A stretch of 32,000 bases of DNA, taken from NCBI RefSeq assembly GCF_000021865.1, contig NC_014034.1, positions 1,710,001 through 1,742,000 on the forward strand. Reading direction: 5' to 3'. Source of the DNA: Rhodobacter capsulatus SB 1003 (GTDB lineage: Bacteria; Pseudomonadota; Alphaproteobacteria; Rhodobacterales; Rhodobacteraceae). A program made the translations under genes and the position numbers. Every line of letters begins with the position of its first letter. The first letter of the stretch is position 1. The notes beneath the pieces were generated by a model, which was not told the origin of the DNA, ran no database searches, and saw only the letters and a program-made list of their open reading frames with translations. This document shows, piece by piece, positions 6,079-30,898 of this stretch.

Positions 6079-6104
6079 GCCCGGGCAAGGAAAAGGGTGT
6101 GCAG

Positions 6105-6875
6105 ATGGACGAGCAAGACGGCAAGGTGGGGCTGCGCCGCAACCCCGGTCAGAAATACAGCCTGTTTCTGGACGAGCTGCACAGCCGGATGGTGTTCGAC
6201 TGGTACATGGAAATCGGCTGCCGCGCCGGGCGCAGCTTTGCCCCGGTGACGGGCAAGACCATCGCCGTCGATCCCTTTTTCAAGGCGGAAACGAACATCA
6301 TCGGCGCCAAGCCGCAACTGCTGATCTTTCAGCAGACGAGCGACGATTTCTTCGCCTCGGGGATGCTCGAGCGGATGGGGATCAAGCTGTCGCTCTCGTT
6401 CCTCGACGGGATGCATCTTTTTGAATATCTGCTGCGCGATTTCATGAATACCGAGGCGGTCTCGAACCCCGATGGCGTGATCGCGCTGCATGACTGCCTG
6501 CCCTTCAACCAGCGCATGCTGACCCGCGATCTGCAGAACCTGCCGAAGGGGCCCTGGACGGGCGATGTGTGGAAGCTGATCCCGATCTTGCGCAAATACC
6601 GCCCCGATCTGCAGCTGACGGTGCTGAACTGCCGCCCGACCGGGCTGGTGTTCGTGTCGAACCTCGATCCGAAAAACACCGTGCTGCGCGACAATTACGA
6701 CGCGATCCTGGCGGAATGGACCTCGATCGATCTGGTGCCCTATGGCGTCGGGCGCTTCTACGACTGTTTCGAAAGCGTCGATGCCGAGACCTTTGCCGCC
6801 GCCGATTACCCGATCTTCGCGAAGATCCGGCAGGCCCCCGCGACGATCCGCAAGCCCACCAAGGTCACGAAATAA
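6105..6875 (+). CDS. class I SAM-dependent methyltransferase-fold protein (Methyltransf_24-like)
   Basis: 256 aa from ATG 6105, with the RBS AAGGAAAAGGG upstream. It carries a motif-I-like YMEIGCRAGRS plus FLDGMHLFEYLLRDF and WTGDVWK, as in glycan-cluster methyltransferase-fold proteins. Confidence 0.75.
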   Translation: MDEQDGKVGLRRNPGQKYSLFLDELHSRMVFDWYMEIGCRAGRSFAPVTGKTIAVDPFFKAETNIIGAKPQLLIFQQTSDDFFASGMLERMGIKLSLSFLDGMHLFEYLLRDFMNTEAVSNPDGVIALHDCLPFNQRMLTRDLQNLPKGPWTGDVWKLIPILRKYRPDLQLTVLNCRPTGLVFVSNLDPKNTVLRDNYDAILAEWTSIDLVPYGVGRFYDCFESVDAETFAAADYPIFAKIRQAPATIRKPTKVTK

Positions 6876-6889
6876 CCCCGGAGGCAGCG

Positions 6890-8200
6890 ATGTCGGCACG
6901 CGAAGACGATCCCTCCCGCGCCCCGGAGCCGCAGGGCGGCTGGTCCACCAGGATCGTCTGCGTGCCCGATGCGCTGGTCGTGCCCGCAACCGTGCCCGAC
7001 ATGGTGCAGCCGATGGGCATCTATGATGCCGAGGGCGCCTATGTGCGCGAAGGGGTGCTCTGGCGTGGCCGCCGCCTGATGGTCGAACCCGAGATCCGCC
7101 CCGAGCCGGTGGCGGATCTGCCCGGGCGCTGGATCTGGGGCGGCATCCTGCTCAATCACTTCGGGCATTTTCTGGTCGAAAGCACGCCGCGGCTTTGGGC
7201 GCTGGACGCGGTCGAGGGGGCGGTCGACGGCCTGATCTTCACCGTCAAGCGCGAGACGATCGAGGAAGCGGGAGAGCTGAGGCTGCAGCCGTTCCAGCGG
7301 CTCTTCTTCGATCTTCTGGGCATCGACCTGCCGATCCGCATCCTGTCGCAGCCGACCCGGGTCGCGCGGCTGGAGGTGCCCGGGCAGGGCTTCGGTCTGG
7401 GCGCGATCGCCGCCGGGACGGCGCCGTTCCGGGCCTTTTTCGAGACCCGCTTTGCCCGCAACATCGCCCCGCAGGGCGCGGAAAAGCTTTATATTTCCCG
7501 CTCGGCGCTCGGGCCTGCGCGCGGCGGCGTGCTCGGCGAGGACCGGATCGAGGCGGCGCTCTCGGCGGCGGGCTACGAGATTTTCCACCCGCAAAAACAC
7601 AGCCTGCAATCGCAGATCGCGCATTACAAGGCGGCGCGGCAGGTGGTGGCGCTCGATGGTTCGGCGCTGCACATGGTGGCGATGGTGGGGCGGCGCGATC
7701 AGCAGGTGGCGATGATCCGGCGCCGGGTGTCCGACGTGTCGGACAGCATCGTGACGCATCTGACCGCCTTCACCGGGCGGGCGCCGCAGGTGATCGACGT
7801 GATCGAACAGGACTGGGTGCGCTCCGACCGCAAGCGGGCGGACCGGCATTCGGTGGGCCAGCTCGATCTGCCCGCGCTCGGCCGGGCGCTGGTGGCGGGC
7901 GGTTTCCTGCCCGAAGGCGCCGGGATCGCGGCGATGACCGAGGCCGAGATCCACGCCGCGGTGCATGTTTTCGAGGATGCGCTGAGCGGCAAGCTGAGCT
8001 TCGAGCCGCTGGCCCGCGGGGCGCAGCGCGTGCTGCCCGAGGCCGGGCCGGTGGTGCGGCGGCGCAAGGACAAGCCGGGGGCTGCGCCCGGCCAGGAAGG
8101 CAAGCTCAAGGGCGAGGACCGGCGCGCGGCGCGGATGGCGCGGCGGGCCGAAAGGACCGAACGGCGCGAAAAACGCGCGGCGGCCCGGCCCGAGGGCTGA
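6890..8200 (+). CDS. GT61/DUF563 family glycosyltransferase with Arg/Glu-rich C-terminal tail
   Basis: ATG 6890 follows CCGGAGG (6878-6884) and lies 14 nt after the upstream stop. WGGILLNHFGHFLVESTPRLWAL is the DUF563 signature. 436 aa. Confidence 0.85.
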   Translation: MSAREDDPSRAPEPQGGWSTRIVCVPDALVVPATVPDMVQPMGIYDAEGAYVREGVLWRGRRLMVEPEIRPEPVADLPGRWIWGGILLNHFGHFLVESTPRLWALDAVEGAVDGLIFTVKRETIEEAGELRLQPFQRLFFDLLGIDLPIRILSQPTRVARLEVPGQGFGLGAIAAGTAPFRAFFETRFARNIAPQGAEKLYISRSALGPARGGVLGEDRIEAALSAAGYEIFHPQKHSLQSQIAHYKAARQVVALDGSALHMVAMVGRRDQQVAMIRRRVSDVSDSIVTHLTAFTGRAPQVIDVIEQDWVRSDRKRADRHSVGQLDLPALGRALVAGGFLPEGAGIAAMTEAEIHAAVHVFEDALSGKLSFEPLARGAQRVLPEAGPVVRRRKDKPGAAPGQEGKLKGEDRRAARMARRAERTERREKRAAARPEG

Positions 8201-8215
8201 GACCGCCGCGGCCCT

Positions 8216-9292
8216 TCACTTGCCGCGCGCGGCCCGGCGGGCTTCGCGGGCGGCCTTGCGTTCCTGCCGGTCGGCGCGGCGGGCGGCGCGGTCTTCGGCG
8301 CTTTCCCCTGCGGGCAATTCCACGGCGGGCTCTGCCGCCGCCGCGCCCAGATGCGCGCGGGTAAAGACCGCCATCACCTGTGCCACCGCAGCTTCGCGCA
8401 CCGAGCGCAGGTTCGGCTCGAACCAGCCCGCCCCGGCCCGGACCGACGTCACCAGCTCATAGGAGGGGAAATAATCCACCTCCGGGTGATCGTCCTGCAT
8501 CTCGCCCGCCACCGCGCGCAGCACGGATTTCGACAGCACCGTAGCGGGCAGCACATGCGCCTGCGACGCCGTCGCGGTCAGCGGCACCGGCGAGACGGTC
8601 AACAGCACCCGCAGCGCCGGGTTGAGCGCCCGGAGCCGCGCCAGCGCCGCTTCCAGATCGGCCTTGACCTCGGAGACACGGAAATTCGCAAACGCGTGGA
8701 TTTCGGGGTCGTAGCGGCCCGCGATCGTGCCGGGCGCGGTGGCATAGACCTGACCCGAGGGCTTGTGCAGCCAGGCCTCGGTCAGGCCCAGGGTGAAGAT
8801 GAAGACATCGGCCTGCGTGAAGACTTCACGCACCTTTTCAAGGTGTTGCGCGCGGGCGGCCCGGACCGCTTCGGCGCTTTCAAACCCGCCCGGTTCGATG
8901 TTCGGGCGCAAAGCGTCGTAAAACCGGCCGTCCTTTTCCCAGATCGCGTCGAAATCGCGGGGGCTGCCCCAGGCTTCCTCGAGCAGCTGGCGCAGCTGGC
9001 GGGTGGTGTAAAGGTTGCCATACCGGGCCGAATACATGTCATAGCCGTGGCTTGGCCCGTCTTCGGCGGCGATGCCCGCGGGGCGCGGCTCGGCATCGAG
9101 CACGTTGAAGCCGTTCCTGCGCAGGGCCCGGCCGACATGCTGGGCAAAGCAGGACCCGGCGGTGACGATGCGGTCGCCTTTCGTCAGCTCCCAGCGCGGC
9201 CGGTAAAGATCGGGCGGCGGATAGGCGGCCTCGGCGAGGCCAGTGCGCCAGAAGGCGCGGGCGTCAATGCCTTGATAGGGCGAGCGGGTCAT
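8216..9292 (-). CDS. GSCFA family protein (SGNH-like fold) with Arg/Glu-rich C-terminal tail
   Basis: 358 aa. It contains the eponymous motif TAGSCFAQH near the N-terminus. Its ATG overlaps the upstream stop (ATGA, 9289-9292). Confidence 0.9.
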   Translation of the reverse strand: MTRSPYQGIDARAFWRTGLAEAAYPPPDLYRPRWELTKGDRIVTAGSCFAQHVGRALRRNGFNVLDAEPRPAGIAAEDGPSHGYDMYSARYGNLYTTRQLRQLLEEAWGSPRDFDAIWEKDGRFYDALRPNIEPGGFESAEAVRAARAQHLEKVREVFTQADVFIFTLGLTEAWLHKPSGQVYATAPGTIAGRYDPEIHAFANFRVSEVKADLEAALARLRALNPALRVLLTVSPVPLTATASQAHVLPATVLSKSVLRAVAGEMQDDHPEVDYFPSYELVTSVRAGAGWFEPNLRSVREAAVAQVMAVFTRAHLGAAAAEPAVELPAGESAEDRAARRADRQERKAAREARRAARGK

Positions 9293-10101
9293 GCGGACAC
9301 TCCTTTGCGGCAGTAGGCCGCGGCGAGGGCGGGCTGGAGCGCGTCCCAGCAGGCCAGCCCGAAATCGGCGTTCATATGCGAGGCATCGGTGCCGCCGCCT
9401 TCGCCGGAAATCAGCCGCGAGGCCTCCTTGTTATAGGCGCCGCGGGTGGTGATGCCATCGGCCACGGTCTGCGGCGGCTGGGCGATGAACTGCGCCTGCG
9501 GGGCCAGCGCCGCGCCGACCGCGGTTTCGAACATCTGCCCCAGCGCCGGGCCGTCGCCCGCGGTGATCGCCGCATCCCAGCCGTAATCCGAGGTGCCCTC
9601 GGGCGCCTGCCGGGCCCAGTCGGCCCAATGCGGTTCGGCCAGCGCCAGCACGGGCCTGTCCGTCGCCTCTGCGATCGTGCGGGCATGTTCCACCAGCTGC
9701 GTCGTGCCGTAGCGCTCGGTCAGAAACGCCGCGGCAAAGGCCGGATGCACCAGCGTCTTGCCCGCAGTGCCGGCAAGCCCGACCCAGGCGTGGCTTTTGT
9801 AAAACCGCAAGATCCGCTTGGAGGAGACGTTCAGCCCCACCAGCACGAAAGCGTCGAAGCGGGACAGCTCGATCCGGTCATAGCCGCCCGAAAGCTGGCG
9901 GAAATGGCTGGCGATCTTTGGCCGCGTCGGCACCAGCGCCGTGCCCTGCAGCGCCACATGGCGCATCCCGTCCGAGGGCGCGCCGAAGAAGACCGGCTCG
10001 ACCGCCTCCCAGCCCGGGACATTGTCGGCGATCAGCCGGTCCCAGCCCAGTTTCAGCGCCGCAATATGGGAATTGCCGATCACGCACAGCCGCAGCGTCA
10101 T
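9289..10101 (-). CDS. SGNH-hydrolase-like protein
   Basis: Start at ATG 10101 (MTLRLCVIGNSH), which overlaps the upstream stop (ATGA, 10098-10101). It has a block-I-like VIGNSH and a block-V-like DASH (DxxH) near the C-terminus. 270 aa. Confidence 0.7.
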   Translation of the reverse strand: MTLRLCVIGNSHIAALKLGWDRLIADNVPGWEAVEPVFFGAPSDGMRHVALQGTALVPTRPKIASHFRQLSGGYDRIELSRFDAFVLVGLNVSSKRILRFYKSHAWVGLAGTAGKTLVHPAFAAAFLTERYGTTQLVEHARTIAEATDRPVLALAEPHWADWARQAPEGTSDYGWDAAITAGDGPALGQMFETAVGAALAPQAQFIAQPPQTVADGITTRGAYNKEASRLISGEGGGTDASHMNADFGLACWDALQPALAAAYCRKGVSA

Positions 10102-11105
10102 TTCGAGAACGCCTCCAGCAATTCGTCTTCGCACATCACTTTCGCGGTCTTGCCCCGGGCCTCGGCCCTTGCCTTGCGCCGGGCCCGCCGCTCGGGGTCC
10201 TTTGCCCGGCGCTTGCGGTCGGTCGCGGCATCGGGGGTATCGGCGTCGGGGGCGGCGCCCGCGACCAGATCGAGCAGATCGGCGCCGCCGCAGAGCCGCA
10301 CGACGAGCGAGGCCAGACGGTCGGGATCGGCGTCGTCGCCCGGGGCCAGCAGCCGCCCCACCAGCGCATCGAGCACCGGATCATGCCGCACCTGCGCCGT
10401 GCCGCGCGCCCAGTCGGCGGCACGGGCGGCCAGAAGCGCATGGCTCGCCCGGGTCTCGGCGCGCGCGCCGGGCGGGGCGGGCAGCACGATCAGGCAAAGC
10501 CGCAGCGCCGGGTTGAGCGCCTGCAGCCCCGCCCACAGCCGGGCAAAACCGGCGTCCAGATCCCGGGCGGTGGTGCGGGCCTCGGGCCAGTCGGGGGCAA
10601 GGAGGGCGGCGGGCGGGCGGGGAAAGACCTGCCCGCCATCCGGATCGGCCAGCAGCGCGGGCGTGCCAAGCGGCAGCACCAGCGTTTCGGCCTCCGCCAG
10701 CAGCCGCGCCAGCGCCCTCAGATGCGCCTGCCGATAGGCGGTGGCGGTGGCAAGATCGGGCAGGCCCGCCGGATCGACCTCGGGGCGGGCGGCATCGACC
10801 AGCGTGCCGTCGGGCTGCGGCCAGAACACCGGCTGCGCTTCGCCCCGCGCCGCCGCGATCAGCTGCGCGATCAGCCGCACATCGCCCAAAGCCCCGGCCC
10901 GCGCCGAGGCAAGCCCGTAGTGAAACTGCGCCAGAAGCGCCGCCGAGGCCTGTTTCGGCCCGGGTTCGGCATCGTCCAGCCGCGCGCCGCCGCGGCGCAG
11001 GGCCTGCGAAAAGGCCGGATCGCCGCCCAGAACCGTCAGCCGGACCGCGCCTTGCGGCACGGGCGGGGCGGGATCGGTGTCGGCCCTTGTCGTCTCGTCG
11101 CTCAT
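10098..11105 (-). CDS. degenerate GSCFA paralog lacking the GSCFA motif, with Arg/Lys-rich C-terminal tail
   Basis: 335 aa. ATG 11105 follows GGAAGGAAGG. LQALNPALRLCLIVLPAP aligns with LRALNPALRVLLTVSPVP of the GSCFA protein, and the two tails align (DR..R....ER.A...AR..ARGK). Confidence 0.7.
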   Translation of the reverse strand: MSDETTRADTDPAPPVPQGAVRLTVLGGDPAFSQALRRGGARLDDAEPGPKQASAALLAQFHYGLASARAGALGDVRLIAQLIAAARGEAQPVFWPQPDGTLVDAARPEVDPAGLPDLATATAYRQAHLRALARLLAEAETLVLPLGTPALLADPDGGQVFPRPPAALLAPDWPEARTTARDLDAGFARLWAGLQALNPALRLCLIVLPAPPGARAETRASHALLAARAADWARGTAQVRHDPVLDALVGRLLAPGDDADPDRLASLVVRLCGGADLLDLVAGAAPDADTPDAATDRKRRAKDPERRARRKARAEARGKTAKVMCEDELLEAFSK

Positions 11106-11344
11106 TCTGTCCTGCCTTCCTTCCGGCGCAGATTAGGCGCCGCGCCCGCAGTTTGAAAGCCAATCATGGACATTTGAGGGCAGTCCGGAGGTTTGCCTGC
11201 GGGGTTTTGCCTGCGGGCGCGGCGTGCGGGGACGGCGTGCGGGGACGGGGGCTGCCGGGGCTGCCGCCAAAATGTCGCACCGGGCTCGGCGGGCGGGTTG
11301 ACCTATGTCAAAGTGGATCGGGCCGTCCAGCCGCTAGAAGAGGC

Positions 11345-11470
11345 GCATCAGGTTCCCGATCTCCCTGAAACGGCGCAAGCCAGCGGAACCTGAAACAGAA
11401 CCCGGACGTTCTCCCTCGTCGGGTTCCAAATAACGCGCTGCGGGCCTCCCTCCCGCAGCGCTTTATTTTT
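11345..11470 (+). ncRNA. candidate trans-acting sRNA with three CU-rich (anti-SD-like) hairpin loops
   Basis: Stem-loops at 11349-11392, 11398-11426 and 11435-11461 each expose CUCCCU and are followed by TTTATTTTT. There is no credible ORF in the 445-bp gap. The 5' end is not defined because no clear promoter was found. Confidence 0.45.
11435..11470 (+). terminator. Rho-independent terminator (10-bp GC stem, loop CCTCCCT, T-tract)
   Basis: GCGCTGCGGG (11435-11444) pairs with CCCGCAGCGC (11452-11461), followed by TTTATTTTT (11462-11470). Confidence 0.75.
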
Positions 11471-11550
11471 GGCCGGTCGCCTTGGGGATTTCGCCTCGGC
11501 TGCGCCGAGGCGACCCGCCGGGCTGCGCCCCCGGACCCCCCCCGAAGATC

Positions 11551-12138
11551 TCAGATCACCTTGACCTGCGTGCCGACCGGGCAGAGCGGATAAAGTTCCT
11601 CGACCTGGGCATTGAACAGTCCGATGCAGCCCGAAGAGCTTTTGCGGCCGATCTTGCGGGTGTCATGGGTGCCGTGGATGATATAGGCGGGCCAGTCGAG
11701 ATACATCGCCCGGGTGCCCAGCGGATTGTCGGGGCCGGGCGGCATCGGGCGCAGGCTGGGATCGGCGGCGATCATCGAGGCGGTCGGCGTCCAGCTCGGG
11801 TTTTCGCGCTTGCGCACGATCTCGGTATAGCCGGTGCGGGTCAGCTCGGGGCTTTTCGGCACCGAGGTCGGGTAGATGCGATAATCCGCCCCCTCGGCCG
11901 CCCAGTAATGCAGCGCCTTCGAGACCGTGTCGGCGATCAGCGTCACCCGGTCGAGCCGGTCGAAATGCGCGCGCCAGTCGATCTGGCGGAAGCCCGAGAT
12001 ATTGGCGCGCGTCGGCGGCGCCACGATCGCGGGCTGGGCCGCCATCGGCACGTCTTGCGTATTCGCCCGCAGCAGCGAGGGCGCGAAAAGCGCGACGGTG
12101 CCCGAACCGAGCAGCAGACGACGGGTAAGACGGGGCAT
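11551..12138 (-). CDS. L,D-transpeptidase (YkuD domain), Tat/Sec-exported
   Basis: 195 aa. AGGAGG lies 5 nt before ATG 12138. N-terminal RRLLLGSG signal. Catalytic signature HGTHDTRKIGRKSSSGCIG (H..S.GC). Confidence 0.9.
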   Translation of the reverse strand: MPRLTRRLLLGSGTVALFAPSLLRANTQDVPMAAQPAIVAPPTRANISGFRQIDWRAHFDRLDRVTLIADTVSKALHYWAAEGADYRIYPTSVPKSPELTRTGYTEIVRKRENPSWTPTASMIAADPSLRPMPPGPDNPLGTRAMYLDWPAYIIHGTHDTRKIGRKSSSGCIGLFNAQVEELYPLCPVGTQVKVI

Positions 12139-12206
12139 CCGGACCTCCTGAAACAGCGTATTGCGGATGCATCATTCGCGCTCCGCGCCGCGGGGTCCAG
12201 TCAACT

Positions 12207-12228
12207 CCTGTCACGAGGCAGTGACAGG
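12207..12228. promoter_or_regulatory. perfect palindrome CCTGTCAC-N6-GTGACAGG upstream of the L,D-transpeptidase gene
   Basis: 8-bp arms at 12207-12214 and 12221-12228. It lies about 70-90 nt upstream of ATG 12138 on the minus strand. Confidence 0.4.
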
Positions 12229-12271
12229 ATGGGCGGTGACAGGGGGAGCCGTGACAGCAGGGGGGACAGCA
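12221..12271. repeat. four degenerate ~15-bp direct repeats GTGACAG-N-GGGG
   Basis: GTGACAG at 12221, 12235 and 12251, and GGACAGC at 12265, each followed by a G-run. They lie between the infC terminator and the ldt promoter region. Confidence 0.5.
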
Positions 12272-12294
12272 AAAGGCCCTCCGCAGGGAGGGCC
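12271..12294 (-). terminator. Rho-independent terminator of infC
   Basis: The minus strand reads GGCCCTCC-CTGC-GGAGGGCC followed by TTTT (plus-strand AAAA at 12271-12274), 26 nt after the infC stop. Confidence 0.7.
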
Positions 12295-12319
12295 CTTGTC
12301 GTGGCAGGGATCGCGGCGC

Positions 12320-12859
12320 TTATTTCGGCGCGATCATCATCACCATCTGGCGGCCTTCGAGCTTCGGCATCGATTCGACCTTGCCGGCATCGCCGACATC
12401 GCCCACGACCCGGTTCAGCAGCTCCATGCCAAGCTGCTGGTGCGCCATCTCGCGGCCGCGGAAGCGCAGCGTGACCTTGACCTTGTCGCCTTCCTCCAGG
12501 AATTTCATCACCGAGCGCATCTTGACCTCGTAGTCATGCGTGTCGGTGCCCGGACGGAACTTGATTTCCTTGATCTCGATGACCTTCTGCTTCTTGCGGG
12601 CCTCGGCCTCTTTCTTCTGCTGTTCGTATTTGAACTTGCCGAAGTCCATGATCTTGCAGACCGGCGGAACGGCGGTGGGCGAGATTTCCACGAGATCGAG
12701 CCCGGCCTCTTCGGCCATCTGCATCGCACGGGCGGGGGTGACCACGCCGACGTTTTCCCCATCCGCCCCGATCAGGCGGATTTCAGGCGCGCGGATGCGG
12801 TCGTTGATCCGGGGGCCGGTCTCGCGTTGCGGCGGGGCATTGTGCGGTCTGCGGGCTAT
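12320..12859 (-). CDS. infC: translation initiation factor IF-3, non-canonical ATA start
   Basis: The track ORF (12320..12745) begins inside the protein. The frame stays open upstream and reads [40 protein letters not shown], the conserved IF-3 N-domain start. ATA at 12857-12859 follows AAAGGAT. 179 aa. Confidence 0.9.
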
Positions 12860-13068
12860 GGCTGTGATCCTTTTGTGGTGCGCGGTTGGCGCGCAAAATA
12901 GGGGCAGGGGCCTTGTCTTTCAACCGGATTCCGCAGCCGGTTCGGCGGGAATCGGCTTGTGCTTCGAAAAAGGCGGCAATGCGACACGTTTCCTTATTCC
13001 CAAGTGCAGGCGATAGTTGGAATTGTTGATCGTTCCCATGAGAATCCCAACATGAAAAGGGGGGAAGA

Positions 13069-14052
13069 ATGACCGAAGTGAAATGGAAAGACCTGCCGCA
13101 AAATGCCAAGGCGACGCTTGGCATCATCGGCGGGGGGATCCTGCTGGCTCTGATCCTTGGCTTGATGTCGCCGGGTCGCACCGTGGTCACCGTGCCCGTT
13201 GATGAACTGCCGCCGGGTGTCCCGGCAACCCCGGCCGCCGCCGCCGCCGCTCCGGCTGCGGAAGCTGCCCCGGCCGCTGAGGCCCCGGCTGTCGAAGCTC
13301 CGGCCGCCGAGGCCCCGGCTGCGGAAGCTGCCCCGGCCGCTGAAGCCCCGGCTGCGGAAGCCGCTCCGGCTGTCGAAGCCCCGGCCGCTGAAGCTGCCCC
13401 GGCTGCGGAAGCTGCCCCGGCTGCGGAAGCTGCCCCGGCTGCGGAAGCTCCGGCCGCTGAAGCCCCGGCTGCGGAAGCTGCTCCGGCTGTCGAAGCTCCG
13501 GCCGCTGAAGCCCCGGCTGCGGAAGCTGCCCCGGCTGTCGAAGCTCCGGCCGCTGAAGCCCCGGCTGCGGAAGCTGCCCCGGCTGTCGAAGCTCCGGCCG
13601 CTGAAGCCCCGGCTGCGGAAGCTGCTCCGGCTGTCGAAGCTCCGGCCGCTGAAGCCCCGGCTGCGGAAGCTGCCCCGGCTGTCGAAGCTCCGGCCGCTGA
13701 AGCCCCGGCTGCGGAAGCTGCTCCGGCTGTCGAAGCTCCGGCCGCTGAAGCCCCGGCTGCGGAAGCCGCTCCGGCTGTCGAAGCTCCGGCCGCTGAAGCC
13801 CCGGCTGCGGAAGCCGCTCCGGCTGTCGAAGCTCCGGCCGCTGAAGCCCCGGCTGCGGAAGCTGCTCCGGCTGTCGAAGCTCCGGCCGCTGAAGCCCCGG
13901 CTGCGGAAGCTGCTCCGGCTGTCGAAGCTGCTCCGGTTGATCCGGTTGCCGCCGCGCTGGCCGCTGCCGAAGCTGCGAAACTCGCCGCCGAAGCCGCGAC
14001 CGCTGCCGCCGCCGCTGCCGAAGCTGCCGCCGCTGCCGCTGCCGCGAAATAA
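13069..14052 (+). CDS. membrane-anchored Ala/Pro/Glu repeat protein (APAAEAPAAEAAPAVE)n
   Basis: GGGGGGAAG RBS before ATG 13069. One N-terminal TM helix (LGIIGGGILLALILGLM). A strong terminator lies 24 nt after the stop. All differences between repeat units are synonymous only in this frame. Confidence 0.75.
   Translation: MTEVKWKDLPQNAKATLGIIGGGILLALILGLMSPGRTVVTVPVDELPPGVPATPAAAAAAPAAEAAPAAEAPAVEAPAAEAPAAEAAPAAEAPAAEAAPAVEAPAAEAAPAAEAAPAAEAAPAAEAPAAEAPAAEAAPAVEAPAAEAPAAEAAPAVEAPAAEAPAAEAAPAVEAPAAEAPAAEAAPAVEAPAAEAPAAEAAPAVEAPAAEAPAAEAAPAVEAPAAEAPAAEAAPAVEAPAAEAPAAEAAPAVEAPAAEAPAAEAAPAVEAPAAEAPAAEAAPAVEAAPVDPVAAALAAAEAAKLAAEAATAAAAAAEAAAAAAAAK
13447..13926 (+). repeat. tandem array of ten 48-bp units (in-frame, coding)
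   Basis: The unit is GCTCCGGCCGCTGAAGCCCCGGCTGCGGAAGCTGC[C/T]CCGGCTGTCGAA, with boundaries every 48 nt from 13447. Less regular related repeats span 13246-13446. Confidence 0.95.
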
Positions 14053-14075
14053 GCGCCGCAGGCCTGACATCGACA

Positions 14076-14107
14076 AACGCCGCCCTTCGGGGCGGCGTTT
14101 TCTTTTG
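14076..14107 (+). terminator. Rho-independent terminator of the repeat-protein gene
   Basis: AACGCCGCCC-TTCG-GGGCGGCGTT followed by TTCTTTTGG. Confidence 0.8.
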
Positions 14108-14122
14108 GTCCTCCGCCGCGCC

Positions 14123-14152
14123 AAAGAAAAAGGCCGCCCCGAAGGACGGCCC
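14123..14152 (-). terminator. Rho-independent terminator of fpr
   Basis: The minus strand reads GGGCCGTCC-TTCG-GGGCGGCC followed by TTTTTCTTTGG, 20 nt after the fpr stop. Confidence 0.75.
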
Positions 14153-14172
14153 GTTTCGAAATGCCGGAAGGC

Positions 14173-15063
14173 TCAGATGCCTTCGCCGACGAAGGCCTTT
14201 TCCACCACGAATTCGCGCGGCTCGGAATTGGCGCCCTCGCGCAGGCCGTAGCTTTCCAGAACCTTCATCACATCGACGTTGAAGGCAAGCGAGCCGCAGA
14301 CCATCGCCCGGTCGGTTTCCGGGTTCATCGGCGTGATCCCCAGATCCTCGAACACCTTGCCCGAGGCGAGGTTGTCGGTGATCCGGCCCATGTGATGGAA
14401 CTCTTCGCGCGTGGTGGTCGGGTAGTATTTCAGCTTGCCCTCGACCAGCTCGCCGATCAGCGGGTCCTCTTGCAGCGCCTCGACCAGCTGGCGGCCGTAT
14501 TCCAGCTCGGCCACCGTGCGGCAGGTGTGCATCATGATGACTTCGTCGAATTTCTCATAGGCCTCGGGCTCGCGCATCAGCGAGGCGAAAGGCGCAATCC
14601 CGGTGCCGGTGGCCAGGAACCACAGCCGTTTGCCGGGCAGAAGCGCGTCGATCACCAGCGTGCCGACGGGTTTCGGGCGCAAGATGATCTGCTCGCCCAC
14701 CTTGATGTGCTGCAGACGCGAGGTCAGCGGGCCATCGGGCACCTTGATCGAGTAGAATTCGAGCTCTTCGTCCCAGGCGGGCGAGGCGATCGAATAGGCG
14801 CGCATGATCGGCTTGCCGTTGTCATCCAGCAGCCCGATCATCACGAATTCGCCCGAGCGGAAGCGCAGCGTCTGCGGACGCGTGACGCGGAACGAAAACA
14901 GCGTGTCGGTCCAGTGCCGGACAGAGGTCACCGTCTGCGCATCGGGCAGGACTTTCGCGGGGGCAATCGGCGTGGTCTCGTTCACGGTCGTCTCGTCTTT
15001 GAGGCCCGAAGGGGCGATGAAGAAGCGCCGCACCGGCGCATGCGAAGGCGCGGCAGGAAACAT
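14173..15063 (-). CDS. fpr: ferredoxin--NADP(+) reductase (bacterial subclass I FPR)
   Basis: RAYSIAS (FAD binding), FLATGTGIAPF (NADP binding) and the C-terminal ...EKAFVGEGI are typical of Azotobacter/Rhodobacter-type FPR. The start is uncertain: TTG 15072, ATG 15063 (used here, no RBS) or GTG 14985. Confidence 0.9.
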   Translation of the reverse strand: MFPAAPSHAPVRRFFIAPSGLKDETTVNETTPIAPAKVLPDAQTVTSVRHWTDTLFSFRVTRPQTLRFRSGEFVMIGLLDDNGKPIMRAYSIASPAWDEELEFYSIKVPDGPLTSRLQHIKVGEQIILRPKPVGTLVIDALLPGKRLWFLATGTGIAPFASLMREPEAYEKFDEVIMMHTCRTVAELEYGRQLVEALQEDPLIGELVEGKLKYYPTTTREEFHHMGRITDNLASGKVFEDLGITPMNPETDRAMVCGSLAFNVDVMKVLESYGLREGANSEPREFVVEKAFVGEGI

Positions 15064-15075
15064 GCGCCGCAATTA

Positions 15076-15119
15076 CCACAAAAGGCGGCGGCGTGCCATG
15101 ACTATGGGCAGATGCCGCC
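15076..15119 (-). terminator. candidate terminator at the end of the cys operon
   Basis: On the minus strand, GGCGGC...TGCCCAT-AGTC-ATGGCA...GCCGCC forms an interrupted hairpin followed by TTTTGTGG, 23 nt after the DUF934 stop. Confidence 0.45.
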
Positions 15120-15141
15120 TGCGACCTTTCGCGTCAAGCGA

Positions 15142-15528
15142 TCACGCTGTCGCAACCGAGCCGAACAGCCGCGCGCGATAGTCATGCGCCTGCCAGTCGG
15201 CGCGGGCGAGCCACTGCGCCTCGCCCTGCCGGGCGGCCAGATCTTCGGGGATCTCCACCTCGTCAAAGCCGGACCGCCGCGCCATGCCGTATTGATCGGC
15301 GATGATCGGCCCGCTGGCGCGCAGCCGCCCCGTATAGCCCGCGTCGCGGATCAGCCGGCCAAGGGTGAAGCCGCGCCCGTCCGAAAAGCTGGGGAAAAGC
15401 ACCTTGACGAGCTCTGCCCCCGCGATCAACCCGGCCAGCGCCTCGGGGGCGGTGGTGGGGGGAACCTCGACGGCCACCCCGGTGAAATCCTCGGGCGCAA
15501 AGCCCGTATCGCGCACGATCACGCTCAT
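15142..15528 (-). CDS. DUF934 protein associated with sulfite reduction
   Basis: Start at ATG 15528 (MSVIVRDTGF...), overlapping the cysH stop (ATGA, 15525-15528). 128 aa. FPSFSDGRGFTLGRLIR is the DUF934 core. Confidence 0.8.
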   Translation of the reverse strand: MSVIVRDTGFAPEDFTGVAVEVPPTTAPEALAGLIAGAELVKVLFPSFSDGRGFTLGRLIRDAGYTGRLRASGPIIADQYGMARRSGFDEVEIPEDLAARQGEAQWLARADWQAHDYRARLFGSVATA

Positions 15529-16289
15529 GCCACCTTGTCCTTGTCGCTGCCTTCGGTTGCGTCCTCGGCCGGTTTGACCCGCACCATCTTGCCGCCGATG
15601 AAATGGATGCCGCATTCGGTCTTTTGCGAGCCGCGCCAACGGCCTGCGCGCGGATCTTCGCCCGGTTTCACCGGCGAGGTGCAGGGCGCGCAACCGATCG
15701 AGGGATAGCCCTTGGCCACCAGCGGATGCCGGGGCAGGCGGTTTTGCACCATGTATTCTTCCAGATCCTCGCGCCCCCAATGCGCCAGCGGATTGATCTT
15801 CATCCGGTTGGGGGTTTCGACTTCAAAGAAATCGATCTCGGCCCGGGTCGCGCCCTGATAACGCTTGCGCCCGGTGATCCAGGCGTCAAAACCCGCAAGC
15901 GCGGTTTCCAGCGGCACGGTCTTGCGCAGATTGCAGCAGGCATCGGTGTTGAACTGATAAAGCGTGCCGTCGGGGTCATCCAGCGCCAGCGCGGCCTTGG
16001 TCGCGCGGATGGTGCGAATCTCCGACAGGCCCAGTTTCGAGGCGACCTCCTGCTGATAGGCGAGCGTTTCCGGAAACAGCATCATCGTGTCGACGAAAAG
16101 CACCGGCGTCGCCGGGGCGATCAAGGAGACCATGTGCAAAAGCACGACCGATTCCGCGCCGAACGAGCTGACCATCGCCACCCGCCCGGTGTCGGGATCG
16201 GCCAGCGCCTTTTCCATCACCGAAATGGCGGCGTGATGCCGGTAGCGCTCGTTCAGCCCCGCAACGCGGGGGCCGATGTCAGGCAGCAT
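15525..16289 (-). CDS. cysH: assimilatory adenylyl-sulfate (APS)/PAPS reductase, Fe-S type
   Basis: Start at ATG 16289, with GAGG 6 nt upstream and an 11-nt overlap with cysI. PAPS_reduct core SFGAESVVLLH, Cys pairs DACCNLRK and GCAPCTS, and the C-terminal ECGIH motif. Confidence 0.9.
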   Translation of the reverse strand: MLPDIGPRVAGLNERYRHHAAISVMEKALADPDTGRVAMVSSFGAESVVLLHMVSLIAPATPVLFVDTMMLFPETLAYQQEVASKLGLSEIRTIRATKAALALDDPDGTLYQFNTDACCNLRKTVPLETALAGFDAWITGRKRYQGATRAEIDFFEVETPNRMKINPLAHWGREDLEEYMVQNRLPRHPLVAKGYPSIGCAPCTSPVKPGEDPRAGRWRGSQKTECGIHFIGGKMVRVKPAEDATEGSDKDKVA

Positions 16290-17940
16290 CTTGGGCCTCG
16301 TCATAAAGCGCGGCGCGGAAGGGCTCGCGGCCAAGCCGGTGCAGCGCGGCAAGGAAGGTTTCGCCCTCCGAAAGCCGAAGCGTCAGATAGGCACGCACCA
16401 GCCGCTCGATCGCCGGGACAACCGCGTCATAGGCAAAGCCCGGCCCCATCTTTTCGCCGATCGCGGCTTCGGGGCCCTCGGCACCGCCAAGGGTGATCTG
16501 GTAATTCTCGGCCCCGGCGCGATCAAGCCCAAGGATGCCGATGGCGCCCAGATGGTGATGACCGCAGGCATTGATGCAGCCAGAGATTTTCAGAGGCAGC
16601 GGCCCGATGGTTTCGACCAGCCCCAGCGTCTCGAAATGCTGCGCGATCTCTTGCGCGAGCGGGATCGAGCGGGCGGTGGCCAGCGCGCAGTAATCCATCC
16701 CCGGGCAGGCGATCATGTCGGAAATCAGCCCGACATTCGCCGCCGCCAGCCCGACCTTGCGCAGCGCGGCATGAAGGGCGGGCAGATCGGCGCGCGCGAC
16801 ATGGGGCAGAACGATGTTCTGCATGTGGGAAATCCGCAGCTCGCCGTAGCCATGCAGATCGGCCAGATCGGCAACGGCCCGCATCTGCGCCGCCGAGACA
16901 TCGCCCGGTTCCTCGCCCGGGGTCTTGACCGAGATCGTCACCACCGCATGATCGGGGCGCTTGTGATCGGTGACCGAGTGCTTGACCCAGGCCGCGAAAG
17001 CCGGGTCGGTGACCTGCGCCGCGGCAAAGGGGGCGGGGTCTTTCGCGACCAGATCGGGCAGGGCGAAATGCGGGGTGATTTCCGCCAGAAGCGCCTGATC
17101 GGCGCCGGTGAATTGCGGGCGGATACGCTCGAATTCCTGCTCTACCAGATCGCGGAAGGGCTCGATCCCGGTCTCGAAGACGGTGATCTTGATCCGCGCC
17201 TTGTATTTGTTGTCGCGCCGCCCGATCAGGTTGTAGGCGGCCAGGATCGCCTCCAGATAGGGCAGCAGATCGGCTTTCGGAAGGAAATCGCGCAGCTCGG
17301 GCGCCAGCATCGGCGTGCGCCCCAGCCCGCCGCCCACCAGCACGCGAAAGCCGGTTTCGCCCCCGCGCTGGATCAGTTGCAGCCCGACATCATGGGCGCG
17401 GATCGCGGCGCGGTCCTCCGGGCTGCCGGTGATCGCGATCTTGAACTTGCGCGGCAGGAACTGGAATTCGGCATGATCCGAGGACCATTGCCGGATCAGC
17501 TCCGCATAGGGGCGGGGGTCTTCGATTTCATCCGCGGCGGCCCCGGCAAAGGCGTCGGTCGTGACGTTGCGGATGCAATTGCCCGAGGTCTGGATCGCAT
17601 GCAGCCCGTCATCGGCGAGCCGCTCCAGAATGTCGGGCGTGTCGGTCAGCTTGATCCAGTTGAACTGGATGTTCTGGCGGGTGGTGAAATGGCCATAGCC
17701 GCGGTCGAACCGGTCGGCCACATCGGCGAGCGCCCGCATCTGGTTCGACGAGAGCGTGCCATAGGGGATGGCGACGCGCAGCATGTAGGCATGCAGCTGC
17801 AGATAAAGCCCGTTCATCAGCCGCAGCGGGCGGAATTCCTCCTCGGTCAGGCTGCCGTCCAGCCGTCGCGCCACCTGATCGCGAAACTGCGCCACGCGGT
17901 TGCGCACGAAGGCTTCGTCGAAGTCGGAATATTCATACAT
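16279..17940 (-). CDS. cysI: sulfite reductase hemoprotein (siroheme/4Fe-4S)
   Basis: 553 aa with duplicated nitrite/sulfite reductase ferredoxin-like halves. Cluster/siroheme Cys motifs TSGNCIRN and ACPGMDYC...GCINACGHHH. Confidence 0.95.
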   Translation of the reverse strand: MYEYSDFDEAFVRNRVAQFRDQVARRLDGSLTEEEFRPLRLMNGLYLQLHAYMLRVAIPYGTLSSNQMRALADVADRFDRGYGHFTTRQNIQFNWIKLTDTPDILERLADDGLHAIQTSGNCIRNVTTDAFAGAAADEIEDPRPYAELIRQWSSDHAEFQFLPRKFKIAITGSPEDRAAIRAHDVGLQLIQRGGETGFRVLVGGGLGRTPMLAPELRDFLPKADLLPYLEAILAAYNLIGRRDNKYKARIKITVFETGIEPFRDLVEQEFERIRPQFTGADQALLAEITPHFALPDLVAKDPAPFAAAQVTDPAFAAWVKHSVTDHKRPDHAVVTISVKTPGEEPGDVSAAQMRAVADLADLHGYGELRISHMQNIVLPHVARADLPALHAALRKVGLAAANVGLISDMIACPGMDYCALATARSIPLAQEIAQHFETLGLVETIGPLPLKISGCINACGHHHLGAIGILGLDRAGAENYQITLGGAEGPEAAIGEKMGPGFAYDAVVPAIERLVRAYLTLRLSEGETFLAALHRLGREPFRAALYDEAQDAA

Positions 17941-18247
17941 GTGCGGCGTCCTTGGCGGCGGCTTCTTTCGTCGGGCGGATCGAGGGGCCTTTGGCGCGGA
18001 ACTGCTCGCGCAGCGCCACCGGCACCGGGCCCTGCGGTCCTTGCGTCACATCCACCAGATAGACGCCCACCGCAACCGTCGTGTGACCCATCGCGGAAAG
18101 CAGGCGCAGCTGCGCCTCGGCCTCGTCGGTCAGCACTTCGGCTTCTGCAATGTCACGCACCCAGGTCTCGGCGGCCGAGAAATAGACGACGTGACCGGCG
18201 CGCAGATCATTGGCGCTGACGACTTTCGGAACGAAGGAACGACTCAT
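17933..18247 (-). CDS. DUF2849 protein (sulfite-reductase-linked)
   Basis: Start at ATG 18247, overlapping the cobA stop (ATGA, 18244-18247). Its stop overlaps the cysI start by 8 nt. 104 aa, VVSANDLRAGHVVYF... Confidence 0.75.
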   Translation of the reverse strand: MSRSFVPKVVSANDLRAGHVVYFSAAETWVRDIAEAEVLTDEAEAQLRLLSAMGHTTVAVGVYLVDVTQGPQGPVPVALREQFRAKGPSIRPTKEAAAKDAAHV

Positions 18248-19035
18248 ATCACGGCCTCGAGCGATTGGGCGGCGGCCGCGCGCGGGGCGAGACCGAACAG
18301 GATGACGGCGGGACCTTCCAGACGCGCGGCGGCGGCGGGCAGATCGGCCAGGGTGGTGGCGATCACGCGCTCCTCGGCGCGGGAAACATTTTCTACGAGC
18401 GTGACCGGCGTCGTGGCAAGGGCGCCGTGCATCATCAACCGCCCTTGCAGGAACCTTGCGGCCTTCTTGCCCATGTAGATCGCGGCAACGGCGCCCGGAC
18501 GGGCAAGGCCCGCCCAATCCGCCTCGGCGAAACCGGCGACGTCATGGCCGGTGATCAGGCGCAGCTCGCGGTTGCGGCCGCGCTCGGTCAGGCTTTGCCC
18601 AAGGCCTGCCGCGGCGGCCGAGGCGGCGGTGATCCCGGGCAGGACGGTGAAGCCGATCCCGGCAGCTTCAAGCGCGTCCAGTTCCTCGCCCAGACGGCCG
18701 AAGACGCCCGGATCGCCGGATTTCAGCCGCAGCACATTGCGCCCGGCCTGCGCAAAGCCCAGCATCAGCGCGATGATCTCCTCCTGCGGCATATGGGCGC
18801 CAAAGCCGGTCTTGCCGGTCTCGATCACCTCCGCCTGCGGTCCGGCCAGCGCCAGCACCTCGGCCGAGACCAGCCGGTCATGCAAGATCACATCGGCCGC
18901 AGCCAGCGCCCGCGCCACCGCCAGCGTCAGATGATCCGCACAGCCCGGACCGGCCCCTGCCAGGGTGACATGGCCAGTGCGATGGTCCGTGCGGCGGGGG
19001 GCTTGGGTCTCGGAGGTGCGAAGGATCTGGGTCAT
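18244..19035 (-). CDS. cobA: uroporphyrinogen-III C-methyltransferase (siroheme branch)
   Basis: AAGGAG lies 6 nt before ATG 19035. VTLAGAGPGCADHLTL, LKSGDPGVFGR and VLPGITAASAAAA are SUMT signatures. 263 aa with no CysG N-terminal dehydrogenase domain. Confidence 0.9.
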   Translation of the reverse strand: MTQILRTSETQAPRRTDHRTGHVTLAGAGPGCADHLTLAVARALAAADVILHDRLVSAEVLALAGPQAEVIETGKTGFGAHMPQEEIIALMLGFAQAGRNVLRLKSGDPGVFGRLGEELDALEAAGIGFTVLPGITAASAAAAGLGQSLTERGRNRELRLITGHDVAGFAEADWAGLARPGAVAAIYMGKKAARFLQGRLMMHGALATTPVTLVENVSRAEERVIATTLADLPAAAARLEGPAVILFGLAPRAAAAQSLEAVI

Positions 19036-19632: not shown

Positions 19633-19769
19633 CGGGCCGGGCAGGGGGGCGCTGCCCCCTCTGGCCTCGCGGCCATTCACCCCCCGGGATATTTGGAGCA
19701 AGATGAAAAACAACCGGAGCTGATTTCATCTTGCTCCAAATATCCCGGGGGTCTGGGGGCAGCGCCCCC
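19633..19769. repeat. composite palindromic intergenic element, copy A
   Basis: Perfect 28-bp arms at 19681-19708 and 19724-19751 with a 15-nt loop. Outer GGGGGGCGCTGCCCCC (19644-19659) and GGGGGCAGCGCCCCC (19755-19769). Confidence 0.9.
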
Positions 19770-22576: not shown

Positions 22577-22718
22577 GACTCTCTCGGGCTATTTCCTAGA
22601 GTTTATATAGGGTATCGGGGGGAGAGGTAAAGGCCGTCGGTGCGGGGCGGAAAGCCGCGTGCCAAGCAGGGTTTCGCCGCGGCGGGGCCGCGGCGACCGG
22701 GCGGGCGGGGCCCCCGCA

Positions 22719-22890
22719 CCCCCGGCGTATTTGCGCCAAGAAGAAACAAGCGGGACCAGGCCCCCCTGCAGCCGCATGCCGTCCGCGTCAACAGGCAAGG
22801 GCCCCGCTTTTCCTAGGCAAAATACGCCCTTCTTTCTTTTCGGGGGGGCGGGGGGTGAAGCCCCCCGTCCGCCTCGGGCTTGCCCGAGGC
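22719..22890. repeat. diverged relative (copy D) of the palindromic element family
   Basis: CCCCCGGCGTATTTGCGCCAAGAAGAAACAAGCGGGACC (22719-22757) pairs imperfectly with GGCCCCGCTTTTCCTAGGCAAAATACGCC (22800-22828). The head resembles the CCCCCGGGATATTTGGAGCAAGATGAAA core. GC mini-hairpins at 22850-22866 and 22871-22890. Confidence 0.4.
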
Positions 22891-22978: not shown

Positions 22979-24106
22979 ATGACCCAGTTCAGCTTCACCC
23001 TCTCCGCCACCGACGGCGCCGCCCGCACCGGCGTCATCCACACCCCGCGCGGCGAGATCCGCACCCCCGCCTTCATGCCTGTCGGCACTGCCGCCACGGT
23101 CAAGGCGATGCTGCCCGAAAGCGTGCGCGCCACCGGCGCCGACATCCTTTTGGGCAACACCTATCACCTGATGCTGCGCCCCACGGCCGAGCGCATCGCG
23201 CGGCTGGGCGGGTTGCACAAGTTCATGAACTGGGAGCGCCCGATCCTGACCGACTCGGGCGGGTTTCAGGTGATGAGCCTTGCTTCCGTGCGCAAGCTGA
23301 CCGAGGAGGGCGTGACCTTTTCCAGCCATATCGACGGCTCGAAACACCATCTGTCGCCCGAACGCTCGATGGAGATCCAGAAGCTTCTGGGCTCGGACAT
23401 CGTCATGGCCTTTGACGAATGCCCGGCGCTGCCCGCCGATGACGCGACGGTGGCGAAATCGATGCGGCTCTCGATGCGATGGGCGCAACGCTCGCGTGAT
23501 GCCTTCGGCGACCGGCCCGGCCATGCGCTGTTCGGCATCATGCAGGGCGGTGTCACCCGCGATCTGCGCGAGGAATCGGCCACGAAACTGAAAGAGATCG
23601 GCTTTGACGGCTATGCGATCGGCGGCCTCGCCGTGGGCGAGGGGCAGGAGGCGATGTTCTCGGTCCTCGATTACGCGCCCGGCTTCCTGCCCGCGGACAA
23701 GCCGCGCTATCTGATGGGCGTGGGCAAGCCCGACGACATCGTTGGCGCGGTCGCGCGCGGCATCGACATGATGGATTGCGTGCTGCCCTCGCGCTCCGGC
23801 CGGACCGGGCAGGCCTGGACCCGGCGCGGCCAGATCAACATCAAGAACGCCCGCCACATGGACGATCCGCGCCCGCTGGACGAAGCCTGCAGCTGCCCGG
23901 CCTGCCGCAATTACTCCCGCGCCTATCTGCACCATGTCTTCAAGGCGCAGGAGATGATCTCGGGCATGCTCCTGACCTGGCACAACCTGCATTACTATCA
24001 GGATCTTATGGCAGGCCTGCGCGCGGCGATCGCGGCGGGGCAGCTTTCGGCCTTCGTCGCAGACTTCCATGCCCAGCGCGCGGCGGGGGATATCGACCCG
24101 CTCTAA
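22979..24106 (+). CDS. tgt: queuine tRNA-ribosyltransferase
   Basis: Start at ATG 22979 after AAAGGAG. 375 aa with [24 protein letters not shown] and the zinc motif CSCPAC...H. Confidence 0.95.
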
Positions 24107-24747
24107 TGCCCGGCGATCAGGATGACGGCGGCATAATGCGTTGCGGCCGCCGCGATCACATGGCCATGCCAGATCGCGCGGGAAAACGGCATCCGCTTGA
24201 GCTTGTAGAACACCGTGCCCAGCAGATAGACCGCGCCGCCGATGCCCAGCAGGATCAGCACGGCGAGCGGCAGCCGCTCGATCAGCGGCCAGATCGCGAC
24301 CAGACCCAGAAGCCCCATCACAAGGTAAAGCAGGAACCCGGCCTTCTCGGCGGCATGAAAGAAGCCCAGCTTCATCACCATGCCGATCAAGGCCAGCGTC
24401 CAGATCGTTACGGTCAGCGCGATGCCCACCTTGCCACCCAGCCCGATCAGCGCCATCGGCGTGTAGGTGCCCGCAATCAAAAGATAAATCGCCGCATGAT
24501 CGAAGCGGCGCAGCACCGCGCGGGCGGGCGCGTAAAGCGTCAGGTTGTAGCCCGCCGAAAACCCGAAAGAGGCGATCAGCCCGACCGCATAGACGACCAG
24601 CGGCCAGATCTTCGGCCCAAGCCCCGCCATCGCCGCCCAGACCATCAGCGCCGAAACCGCGGCCACGGCAAAGGTGACGCCCAGCACATGCATCACGCCA
24701 TCGGCGAAATGCTCGCGGAACGAATGGGCCAGCTCATGTCGTGTCAT
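24103..24747 (-). CDS. hemolysin III / PAQR family membrane protein
   Basis: Start at ATG 24747, with GGAGG 6 nt upstream; the track ORF runs on through palindromic element B. 214 aa, 7 TM helices, motifs [14 protein letters not shown] and [12 protein letters not shown]. Confidence 0.9.
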
Positions 24748-24819
24748 CGAAACCTCCGGGGAATGGCGCATCCTAGCAGCCGGGGCGGGCAAGCCAAAGG
24801 CTGACGCTGCGTCAGCCGA

Positions 24820-24939
24820 CGGGCCGGGCAGGGGGGCGCTGCCCCCGTCCTGCGGACTCCCCCCGGGATATTTATGGCAAGATGAAACTGCGGCCTTCAT
24901 CTTGCCATAAATATCCCGGGGTGCGGGGCAGAGCCCCGC
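24820..24939. repeat. composite palindromic intergenic element, copy B
   Basis: Perfect 26-bp arms at 24861-24886 and 24896-24921 with a 9-nt loop. The left 27 nt (24820-24846) are identical to copy A (19633-19659). The right outer hairpin is GCGGGGCAGAGCCCCGC. Confidence 0.9.
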
Positions 24940-30767: not shown

Positions 30768-30898
30768 GAGGGGCGCTGCCCCCCGCGAGGCGATGCCTCG
30801 GCCCCCCGGGATATTTCGAGCAAGATGAAAGGCATCCGGTTTCATCTTGCTTCAAATACCTCGGGGGGAGTCCCGCAGGGACGGGGGGCAGCGCCCCC
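30768..30898. repeat. composite palindromic intergenic element, copy C (opposite orientation to copy B)
   Basis: Imperfect 29-bp arms at 30802-30830 and 30840-30868 with a 9-nt loop. Outer GGGGCGCTGCCCCCC (30770-30784) and GGGGGGCAGCGCCCCC (30883-30898). The spacer AGTCCCGCAGGGAC is the reverse complement of the copy B spacer. Confidence 0.85.

Follow-up and report, generated by a model that had tools for sequence, protein, structure and literature searches.

A palindromic element between lrp and tpiA of Rhodobacter capsulatus and the intergenic repeat of the Rhodobacterales to which it belongs

In the stretch of Rhodobacter capsulatus SB 1003 DNA analysed here (32,000 nt, hereafter the window) the genes lrp (Pfam AsnC/Lrp; + strand, ORF end at 19626) and tpiA (Pfam TIM; - strand, ORF end at 19779) converge, and the spacer between them is taken up by a palindromic structure, element A, that leaves only 6 nt to the end of lrp and 9 nt to that of tpiA. 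An earlier note, made from the letters alone, had described a perfect 28-bp stem with a 15-nt loop, flanked by mirrored G5-N5-C5 mini-hairpins and filling nearly the whole gap, and in each of these respects the description is accurate. The arms (19681-19708 and 19724-19751) form a 28-nt inverted repeat that is 100% complementary, with 15 nt between them, and outside it GGGGGCGCTGCCCCC (19645-19659) and its counterpart at 19755-19769 are likewise 100% complementary to one another, each being also self-complementary. The folding energy of the whole element is -107 kcal/mol as RNA (z = -11.0) and -64 kcal/mol as DNA (z = -11.2), and the outer mini-hairpins pair mutually in the minimum-energy fold, so that the 137 nt make up a single long palindrome with a side branch. 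The AT-rich core in GC-rich DNA to which the note also drew attention is borne out by a G+C content of 39% in the core as against 67.8% for the whole window.

Three further copies had been claimed, two similar (B and C) and one diverged (D), and all are found where they had been placed (Table 1). A search of the window with the 22-nt core, allowing up to 3 mismatches, gave six matches, these being both arms of A, B and C, when none was expected from 100 shuffles, and a profile search returned the same six arms together with a weak match at D, with nothing in positions 1-19000. Element B follows the stop codon (24940) of a gene of the nucleoside kinase family and precedes trhA, both genes being on the - strand; the arms of element C carry different core variants, GGGA and GAGG; and element D is kept in all strains examined. 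The gene trhA (hemolysin III/PAQR family; 24103-24900, - strand) is shadowed by a + strand ORF of 342 aa (23776-24804) that has no family match, and its longest ORF extends into element B, the true start lying near 24747. It was also observed that these palindromic repeats break assemblies, several R. capsulatus draft or short-read contigs breaking off inside D (L253-L257, at contig starts) or inside C (L265-L269, at contig ends).

Table 1. Coordinates of the repeat elements of the window and make-up of the 5' modules found in the repeat family.
Feature	Position	Strand	Description
Element A	19633-19769	.	head-to-head doublet occupying the convergent lrp (+) / tpiA (-) spacer
A left unit	19644-19708	+	long-form alpha unit; layout shared with Pararhodobacter, Gemmobacter, Lutimaribacter and others
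A left unit, hp1	19644-19659	+	GGGGGGCGCTGCCCCC
A left unit, hp2	19663-19674	+	GGCC-tcgc-GGCC
A left unit, C-run	19680-19685	+	
A left unit, core	19686-19708	+	GGGATATTTGGAGCAAGATGAAA
A spacer/loop between units	19709-19723	.	15 nt; 40 nt in strains L122, L123 and L125
A right unit	19724-19769	-	short form; core 19724-19746, G-run 19747-19751, hp1 19755-19769
Element B	24820-24939	.	doublet between two - strand genes (tandem junction)
B left unit		+	hp1 24831-24846, hp2 24847-24857, core 24865-24887
B right unit		-	core 24895-24917, hp1 24923-24939
Element C	30768-30898	.	doublet; M32 carboxypeptidase gene (+, ends 30763) / - strand gene ending 30898; convergent
C left unit			hp1 30770-30784, hp2 30785-30802, core 30808-30830
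C right unit			core 30840-30862, hp2 30870-30882, hp1 30883-30898
Element D	22704-22867	.	degenerate, rearranged doublet; divergent tgt / FeS-assembly-gene spacer
D, core variant	22723-22746		GGCGTATTTGCGCCAAGAAGAAAC
D, remnant	22816-22867	-	
Alpha module			hp1 GGGGGCGCTGCCCCC, with or without a second hairpin hp2, then (T)CCCCCCGG
Beta module			CCGGGGGTTTCACACCCCCGG + ACCCCCGTGG
Gamma module			GCGAGGGGC..GCCCCTCGC + GCTCCCCGG
Delta module			12-nt mini-hairpin GCCTCCGGCGGG; C-G, T-A and G-C covariation at one pair
Epsilon module			T-rich lead; sometimes fused with a canonical hairpin+T7 terminator

The repeat is widespread within one bacterial order. A scan of one genome per species with the pattern TATTTNNNGCAAGATGAA gave at least 120 stretches, and among the matches listed about 90 are G+C-rich and come from the Rhodobacterales, in which more than 20 named genera, again among the matches listed, carry the repeat (e.g. 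Rhodobacter, Roseovarius, Thalassovita, Gemmobacter, Pararhodobacter, Lutimaribacter, Roseinatronobacter, Jhaorihella, Phaeobacter, Shimia and Defluviimonas); one MAG with a Sphingomonadales label, also among these matches, carries it too. BLAST searches placed it on plasmids or chromids of Paracoccus denitrificans, P. pantotrophus, Ruegeria, Tritonibacter, Gemmobacter and Loktanella, and the syntenic locus of R. capsulatus DSM 1710 bears the same repeat. A phage or GTA origin was considered and rejected, a scan of viral contigs having given mostly chance matches and about ten host-like GC-rich contigs. Some of the IMG/VR contigs classed as viral that bear bona fide units (L157, L137, L162) look host-like and are G+C-rich, and one unit on such contigs lies just upstream of an ORF starting MAFHEIRFP, a start that we take to be typical of the GTA structural cluster.

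The repeated unit is asymmetric and 32-90 nt long, and consists of a near-invariant, A+T-rich core of 23 nt (consensus GRRTATTT-NN-GGCAAGATGAAR) with a sharp 3' edge, preceded by one or two GC mini-hairpins. In an alignment of 110 units, among the matches listed, the series G-R-R-TATTT-NN-G-GCAAGATGAA-R is near-invariant, which is partly forced since the selecting pattern itself fixes TATTT and GCAAGATGAA; it holds also for the copies in the window and for the profile matches. Directly past GATGAA-R the information content of the same 110 units, among the matches listed, drops to background. The invariant part of the unit is the unpaired core, GRRTATTTNNGGCAAGATGAAR. Each of the 5'-module sub-families (Table 1) recurs in several genera and several occur together in one genome, and modules of 50-90 nt have been copied along with the core, down to specific hp1 loops, spacers and an ATTCA linker. 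The stems of the small GC hairpins in the modules covary or are free to vary: of 29 long-form units 26 have a perfect hairpin at hp2, in which 28 different sequences occur, with a mean folding energy of -7.9 kcal/mol compared to -2.8 kcal/mol for shuffles, and two pairs just outside the stem formed by the G and C runs of hp1 covary through several pair types (41 of 66 paired, about 26 expected). Two other readings of the core were rejected. On inspection it contains no properly spaced promoter hexamers of the sigma-70, sigma-54 or RpoH type on either strand, and a promoter scan found nothing at the elements; a coding or leader-peptide role is not indicated either, the invariant ATG being the start of no more downstream ORFs (3 of 35) than chance would give.

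An important consideration is whether the palindrome or its half is the basic entity. Head-to-head partners within 150 nt, with up to 3 mismatches, were sought for those 110 units among the matches listed that have enough flank, and were found for 19 (~17%), so that ~83% are single; a tail-to-tail partner, with the cores at the outer ends, was found for 2 of the 110 (loci L113 and L022), and a tandem copy for at most 1. The sequence opposite a single unit matches a partner no better than background, and single units are therefore not decayed doublets. The 'composite palindromic element' of the earlier note is a dimer, and the entity that is repeated is an asymmetric half-unit that mostly stands alone without the remnant of a partner. 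The head-to-head counts make the doublet a specific, favoured arrangement, yet a minority form. Several doublets combine unlike 5' modules, L108 for instance pairing delta with gamma, and the two arms agree at positions -3/-1 in 94% of cases as against 51% expected, although this covariation could partly reflect genome-wide homogenisation rather than selection for pairing.

Genes around the units were called with a codon-usage caller trained on the loci and checked against Pfam and NCBIfam on the window, where it rightly preferred trhA over the shadow ORF. Among the matches listed, only 1 of 122 units is intragenic. The unit usually occupies the entire spacer, with its GATGAA end 0-20 nt from the next stop or start codon. 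A tie to convergent gene ends does not hold for the family: the contexts of 86 single units, among the matches listed, were tandem and co-oriented in 35 cases, tandem and anti-oriented in 24, convergent in 19 and divergent in 8, and element B itself sits in a tandem junction. Divergent spacers are depleted and convergent ones somewhat enriched, and no strict orientation was found for any 5'-module class among these matches. Within operons, units lie 7-20 nt upstream of start codons in either orientation, as at the pdxA-rsmA junction. At locus L042 (2769-3668) truA lies between two outward-facing epsilon units, one on each side. A sequence shared by a Roseovarius locus (L027, ~4200-4320) and a Pseudophaeobacter locus (L043, ~2600-2740), CTTCACCTTGCGCGGTCATCGGCTC..CAGCCTGTACCGC, lies ~60 nt past a unit; Rfam gave no match for it, and it could be where a gene on the reverse strand ends.

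A bidirectional terminator or 3'-end stabiliser headed the roles offered in the earlier note. On this rival reading the repeat would be a dedicated RNA-level signal under selection in the transcript, acting as a bidirectional terminator independent of a U-tract, as a 3'-end stabiliser or processing site, or as both, in which single units would supply a hairpin with an RNase E-like GU|AUUU site and doublets an RNase III substrate. The doublets are indeed extremely stable (-86 to -107 kcal/mol, z = -7 to -11), their stem is maintained by compensatory changes, A and C occupy convergent spacers and convergent contexts are over-represented, the mini-hairpin of the delta module abuts UAUUU, and a canonical hairpin+T7 terminator stands immediately before some units or is merged with them (L095, L183). 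However, the 83% of units that are single, among the matches listed, fold no better than shuffles (z = -0.5 to -1.9), tandem contexts, among the same matches, show no strict orientation to transcription, and a hairpin terminator has no need of a 23-nt invariant unpaired sequence. The units share with intrinsic terminators a GC-rich hairpin near a U-containing stretch (UAUUU) and a frequent position after stop codons, but in most of them the U-rich stretch is 11-16 nt from hp1, and they occur in both orientations, not tied to the upstream gene, and also before start codons, only a minority of epsilon units following a hairpin+T7. The doublets have no U-tract at all: no T-run follows the hairpins of A, B or C, and a terminator scan called none of the three. 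Classical intrinsic terminators are nevertheless used by R. capsulatus, as is apparent from back-to-back canonical hairpin+T-run terminators between convergent genes at 14075-14152 of the window. A terminator-like hairpin, GGCTGACGCAGCGTCAGCC followed by TTTGG (24799-24817, - strand), kept in all strains, lies directly downstream of B and upstream of trhA, and in three strains another such hairpin lies inside the loop of A. The predominance of single units and the insertions inside operons in two orientations argue against a dedicated terminator, and the dedicated bidirectional role is unlikely; a selected RNA-level signal in the wider sense is possible but improbable. Any effect on mRNA 3' ends is probably secondary and not the reason for the family's existence, but by analogy with REP and Correia elements it is plausible that doublets affect mRNA as exonuclease barriers, as RNase III substrates or by insulating convergent genes.

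The sites at which units have been gained differ between lineages, and both orientations are represented. The pdxA-rsmA junction is without a unit in L025, in which the two genes overlap (ATGA), has a forward unit in Rhodobacter maris (L039) and a reverse unit in Pararhodobacter (L069). A canonical terminator (14131-14152, - strand) follows the ferredoxin-NADP-reductase-like gene in the window, and its place is taken by a unit in a Rhodobacter MAG (L034). Variation is also marked within the species. Element A is present in all of nine R. capsulatus strains and is highly variable, whilst Lrp is identical (the assemblies encoding identical Lrp are of the AYPY, AYQA and FNAY accession series, presumably R. 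capsulatus), and both A and B are hypervariable between strains with nearly identical flanks. An additional hp2 on the right side of A, absent from the window copy, is present or absent by strain. In L122, L123 and L125 (~3040-3090) the 40-nt loop of A contains AAAAGGGCG...CGCCCTTTGTC, an A-tract, a GC hairpin and a T-tract, the shape of a canonical bidirectional terminator, which SB1003-type strains lack; this suggests an older terminator lying between the units and lost by later deletion. Three independent paired changes have occurred in the arms of A (GGGA/TCCC to GAGG/CCTC, GATGAA/TTCATC to GATAAA/TTTATC, and also to GGTGAA/TTCACC), and RNAalifold found 6 pairs with double compensatory change over the 9 strains. 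In strain FNAY01 the GGGA/TCCC to GAGG/CCTC switch has taken place in element B as well, all four arms of A and B having GAGG where SB1003-type strains have GGGA. The favoured core variant of a genome is AG, GA or GG, and the -2/-1 variant is common to 83% of non-partner unit pairs within a locus or genome compared to 39% between them. This genome-specific concerted evolution implies ongoing copying or conversion among the copies. A, B and D were present in every R. capsulatus strain examined, and for C the strains examined all had the same 136-nt spacer, so that no strain-level empty site was found for any of the four and actual movement was not caught.

A further rival reading is an ordinary MITE, derived from a known IS family. 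The core would then be a terminal inverted repeat and the single units solo ends, and the parent, an IS of the Rhodobacterales, would end in TTCATCTTGCC...AAATAC with flanking duplications. The core has a sharp edge at GATGAAR, like that of a transposon terminus, and it lies outermost in the tail-to-tail pairs at two loci, but in 19 of 21 paired cases, among the matches listed, the cores face inward and the outer ends are variable hairpins. Target-site duplications of the IS/MITE kind, which the earlier note had proposed as a check, were looked for and not detected: the upstream recurrence of 4-7-mers that stand after the core is no higher than that of control k-mers, there being no strain-level empty sites for comparison. 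No transposase-like gene recurs near the units in 91 loci or stands beside the window elements, the recurrent neighbour families in those loci being ABC ATPases, SDRs, acyl-CoA dehydrogenases, response regulators, thiolases and permeases, and the 880-nt interval between the outward-facing units of L042, considered as a possible autonomous element, is truA. An ordinary MITE is thus highly improbable. A CRISPR array, already discounted in the note for its spacing, was likewise rejected, since copies lie 2-6 kb apart, run in inverted orientation inside each element and have no direct tandem copy within 250 nt.

The note had also stated that U-tract, GTAG head and linked transposase are all missing, as was found at the elements and among the neighbouring genes, and had not recognised the repeat as a named element; that it is a genuine repeat family is supported. 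In agreement with this, no match to Rfam 15 reached the gathering score in the window or five related loci (ranked by E-value, element A drew only generic miRNA-precursor hairpins, below threshold). No description of the repeat was found in the searchable literature, a coverage outside which most subscription journals lie, and such a family is not mentioned in the text of a paper on R. capsulatus sRNAs.

A number of known repeats nevertheless resemble it. Like the REP/BIME and REPIN elements of E. coli and Pseudomonas, it is high-copy, extragenic, hairpin-forming and a mosaic of modules, it occurs in singles and inverted doublets together, the doublet hairpin being held by compensatory change, and it has no target-site duplication and is often found at 3' ends and between the genes of operons. 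It differs from them in lacking a GTAG head, which in REP elements adjoins an imperfect palindrome of 20-40 nt (none was seen next to hp1 or the core in 110 units, among the matches listed); moreover, the conserved part here is a 23-nt unpaired A+T-rich tail and not a palindrome, and it is conserved throughout an order and not within a species or genus. As to RAYT, the Y1 HUH transposase whose gene such repeats typically flank, a tblastn search with E. coli RayT gave no homologue on Rhodobacterales replicons in the PLSDB plasmid collection. RIME1 and RIME2 of Rhizobium and the ERIC/IRU sequences of enterobacteria are described as whole imperfect palindromes. By their descriptions these too are intergenic repeats assembled from palindromes, ~100-130 bp in length, RIME in Alphaproteobacteria and ERIC throughout a family, with cross-genus conservation and no linked transposase, whereas in the present repeat the asymmetric half-unit is the commoner form. 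The Correia elements, which are MITEs of Neisseria, are also transcribed palindromic repeats, and their long hairpins are RNase III substrates that alter mRNA stability, a likely RNA-level consequence for the doublets described here, but they have outer terminal inverted repeats and TA duplications, neither of which was seen.

The explanation preferred here, with a probability of roughly 0.5, is that A, B and C are dimers, arranged head to head, of a short repeat that is non-coding, non-autonomous and specific to the Rhodobacterales, an intergenic mosaic repeat like REP/BIME/REPIN, RIME and ERIC; on the best reading the family is new and the kind of repeat, REP/BIME/RIME-like, is already known. 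Among the roles suggested at the outset a non-autonomous mobile element therefore fits best. Copies would be made by a copy-and-paste or conversion process, which may be driven by a trans-acting, sequence-specific factor recognising the core. Hairpin folding in single-stranded DNA (or RNA) could be part of the copying or could be needed for the element to be tolerated, and selection would restrict the survivors to intergenic DNA, mostly away from promoters. A transcribed doublet would form a perfect hairpin of at least 28 bp that should block 3' exonucleases and serve as an RNase III substrate, and in this way could shape mRNA 3' ends.

Conservation of the core throughout an order is unusual for REP-type elements, which are usually species- or genus-specific, and a binding site with a host function would fit it equally well. 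The repeat is most unusual in its lineage 'dialects' and in the length and order-wide invariance of an unpaired, sharp-edged core, both of which point to a conserved sequence-specific partner. The core might be no transposon end but the recognition word of a host DNA-binding system that is itself conserved. Such a word would have spread through biased conversion or molecular drive, and could be a site for gyrase or a nucleoid-associated protein, as in the BIMEs of E. coli, or else a signal of the DUS/USS type, tied to DNA uptake or recombination in these GTA-producing bacteria. An order-wide core with genome-specific dialects of one or two bases, many copies per genome, tolerance of both orientations and the failure to find a transposase or target duplication are all consistent with this, as are inverted pairs downstream of genes, an arrangement in which the DUS of Neisseria and the USS of Haemophilus also occur. 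The likeness to DUS/USS extends to family- or order-wide conservation, lineage dialects, hundreds of copies and the lack of a transposase, but those are words of 9-12 nt, common inside genes and without co-copied hairpin modules, whereas the present units are almost never inside genes and whole modules of 50-90 nt have been copied with the core, which indicates copy-paste of units and not drift by point mutation towards a word. Packaging and uptake by RcGTA reportedly show no sequence specificity, and no uptake receptor linked to such a signal is known in the Rhodobacterales. A host recognition word of this kind is therefore distinctly doubtful.

The preferred reading of a REP-like mosaic repeat leaves a place for a partner protein. 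It is a tentative and rather unlikely suggestion that the core is the recognition site of a protein conserved across the order, either a domesticated HUH or other DNA enzyme, in a partnership like that of REPIN and RAYT, or a factor associated with DNA uptake, recombination or GTA. Were it correct, the AG/GA/GG dialects would reflect co-evolution or drive between the core-recognising protein and its several hundred sites, and a REPIN-RAYT-like partnership would be the first described in the Alphaproteobacteria; discovery of the partner would test whether REPIN-like partnerships of host and element exist outside the Gamma- and Betaproteobacteria. The Rhodobacterales include model phototrophs (Rhodobacter capsulatus), denitrifiers (Paracoccus) and abundant marine roseobacters, and a repeat with tens to hundreds of copies per genome, filling short spacers and entering operons, affects annotation and the prediction of transcript ends and operons. 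It also affects genome assembly and may influence mRNA stability, and its units are hypervariable markers among strains that are otherwise near-identical.
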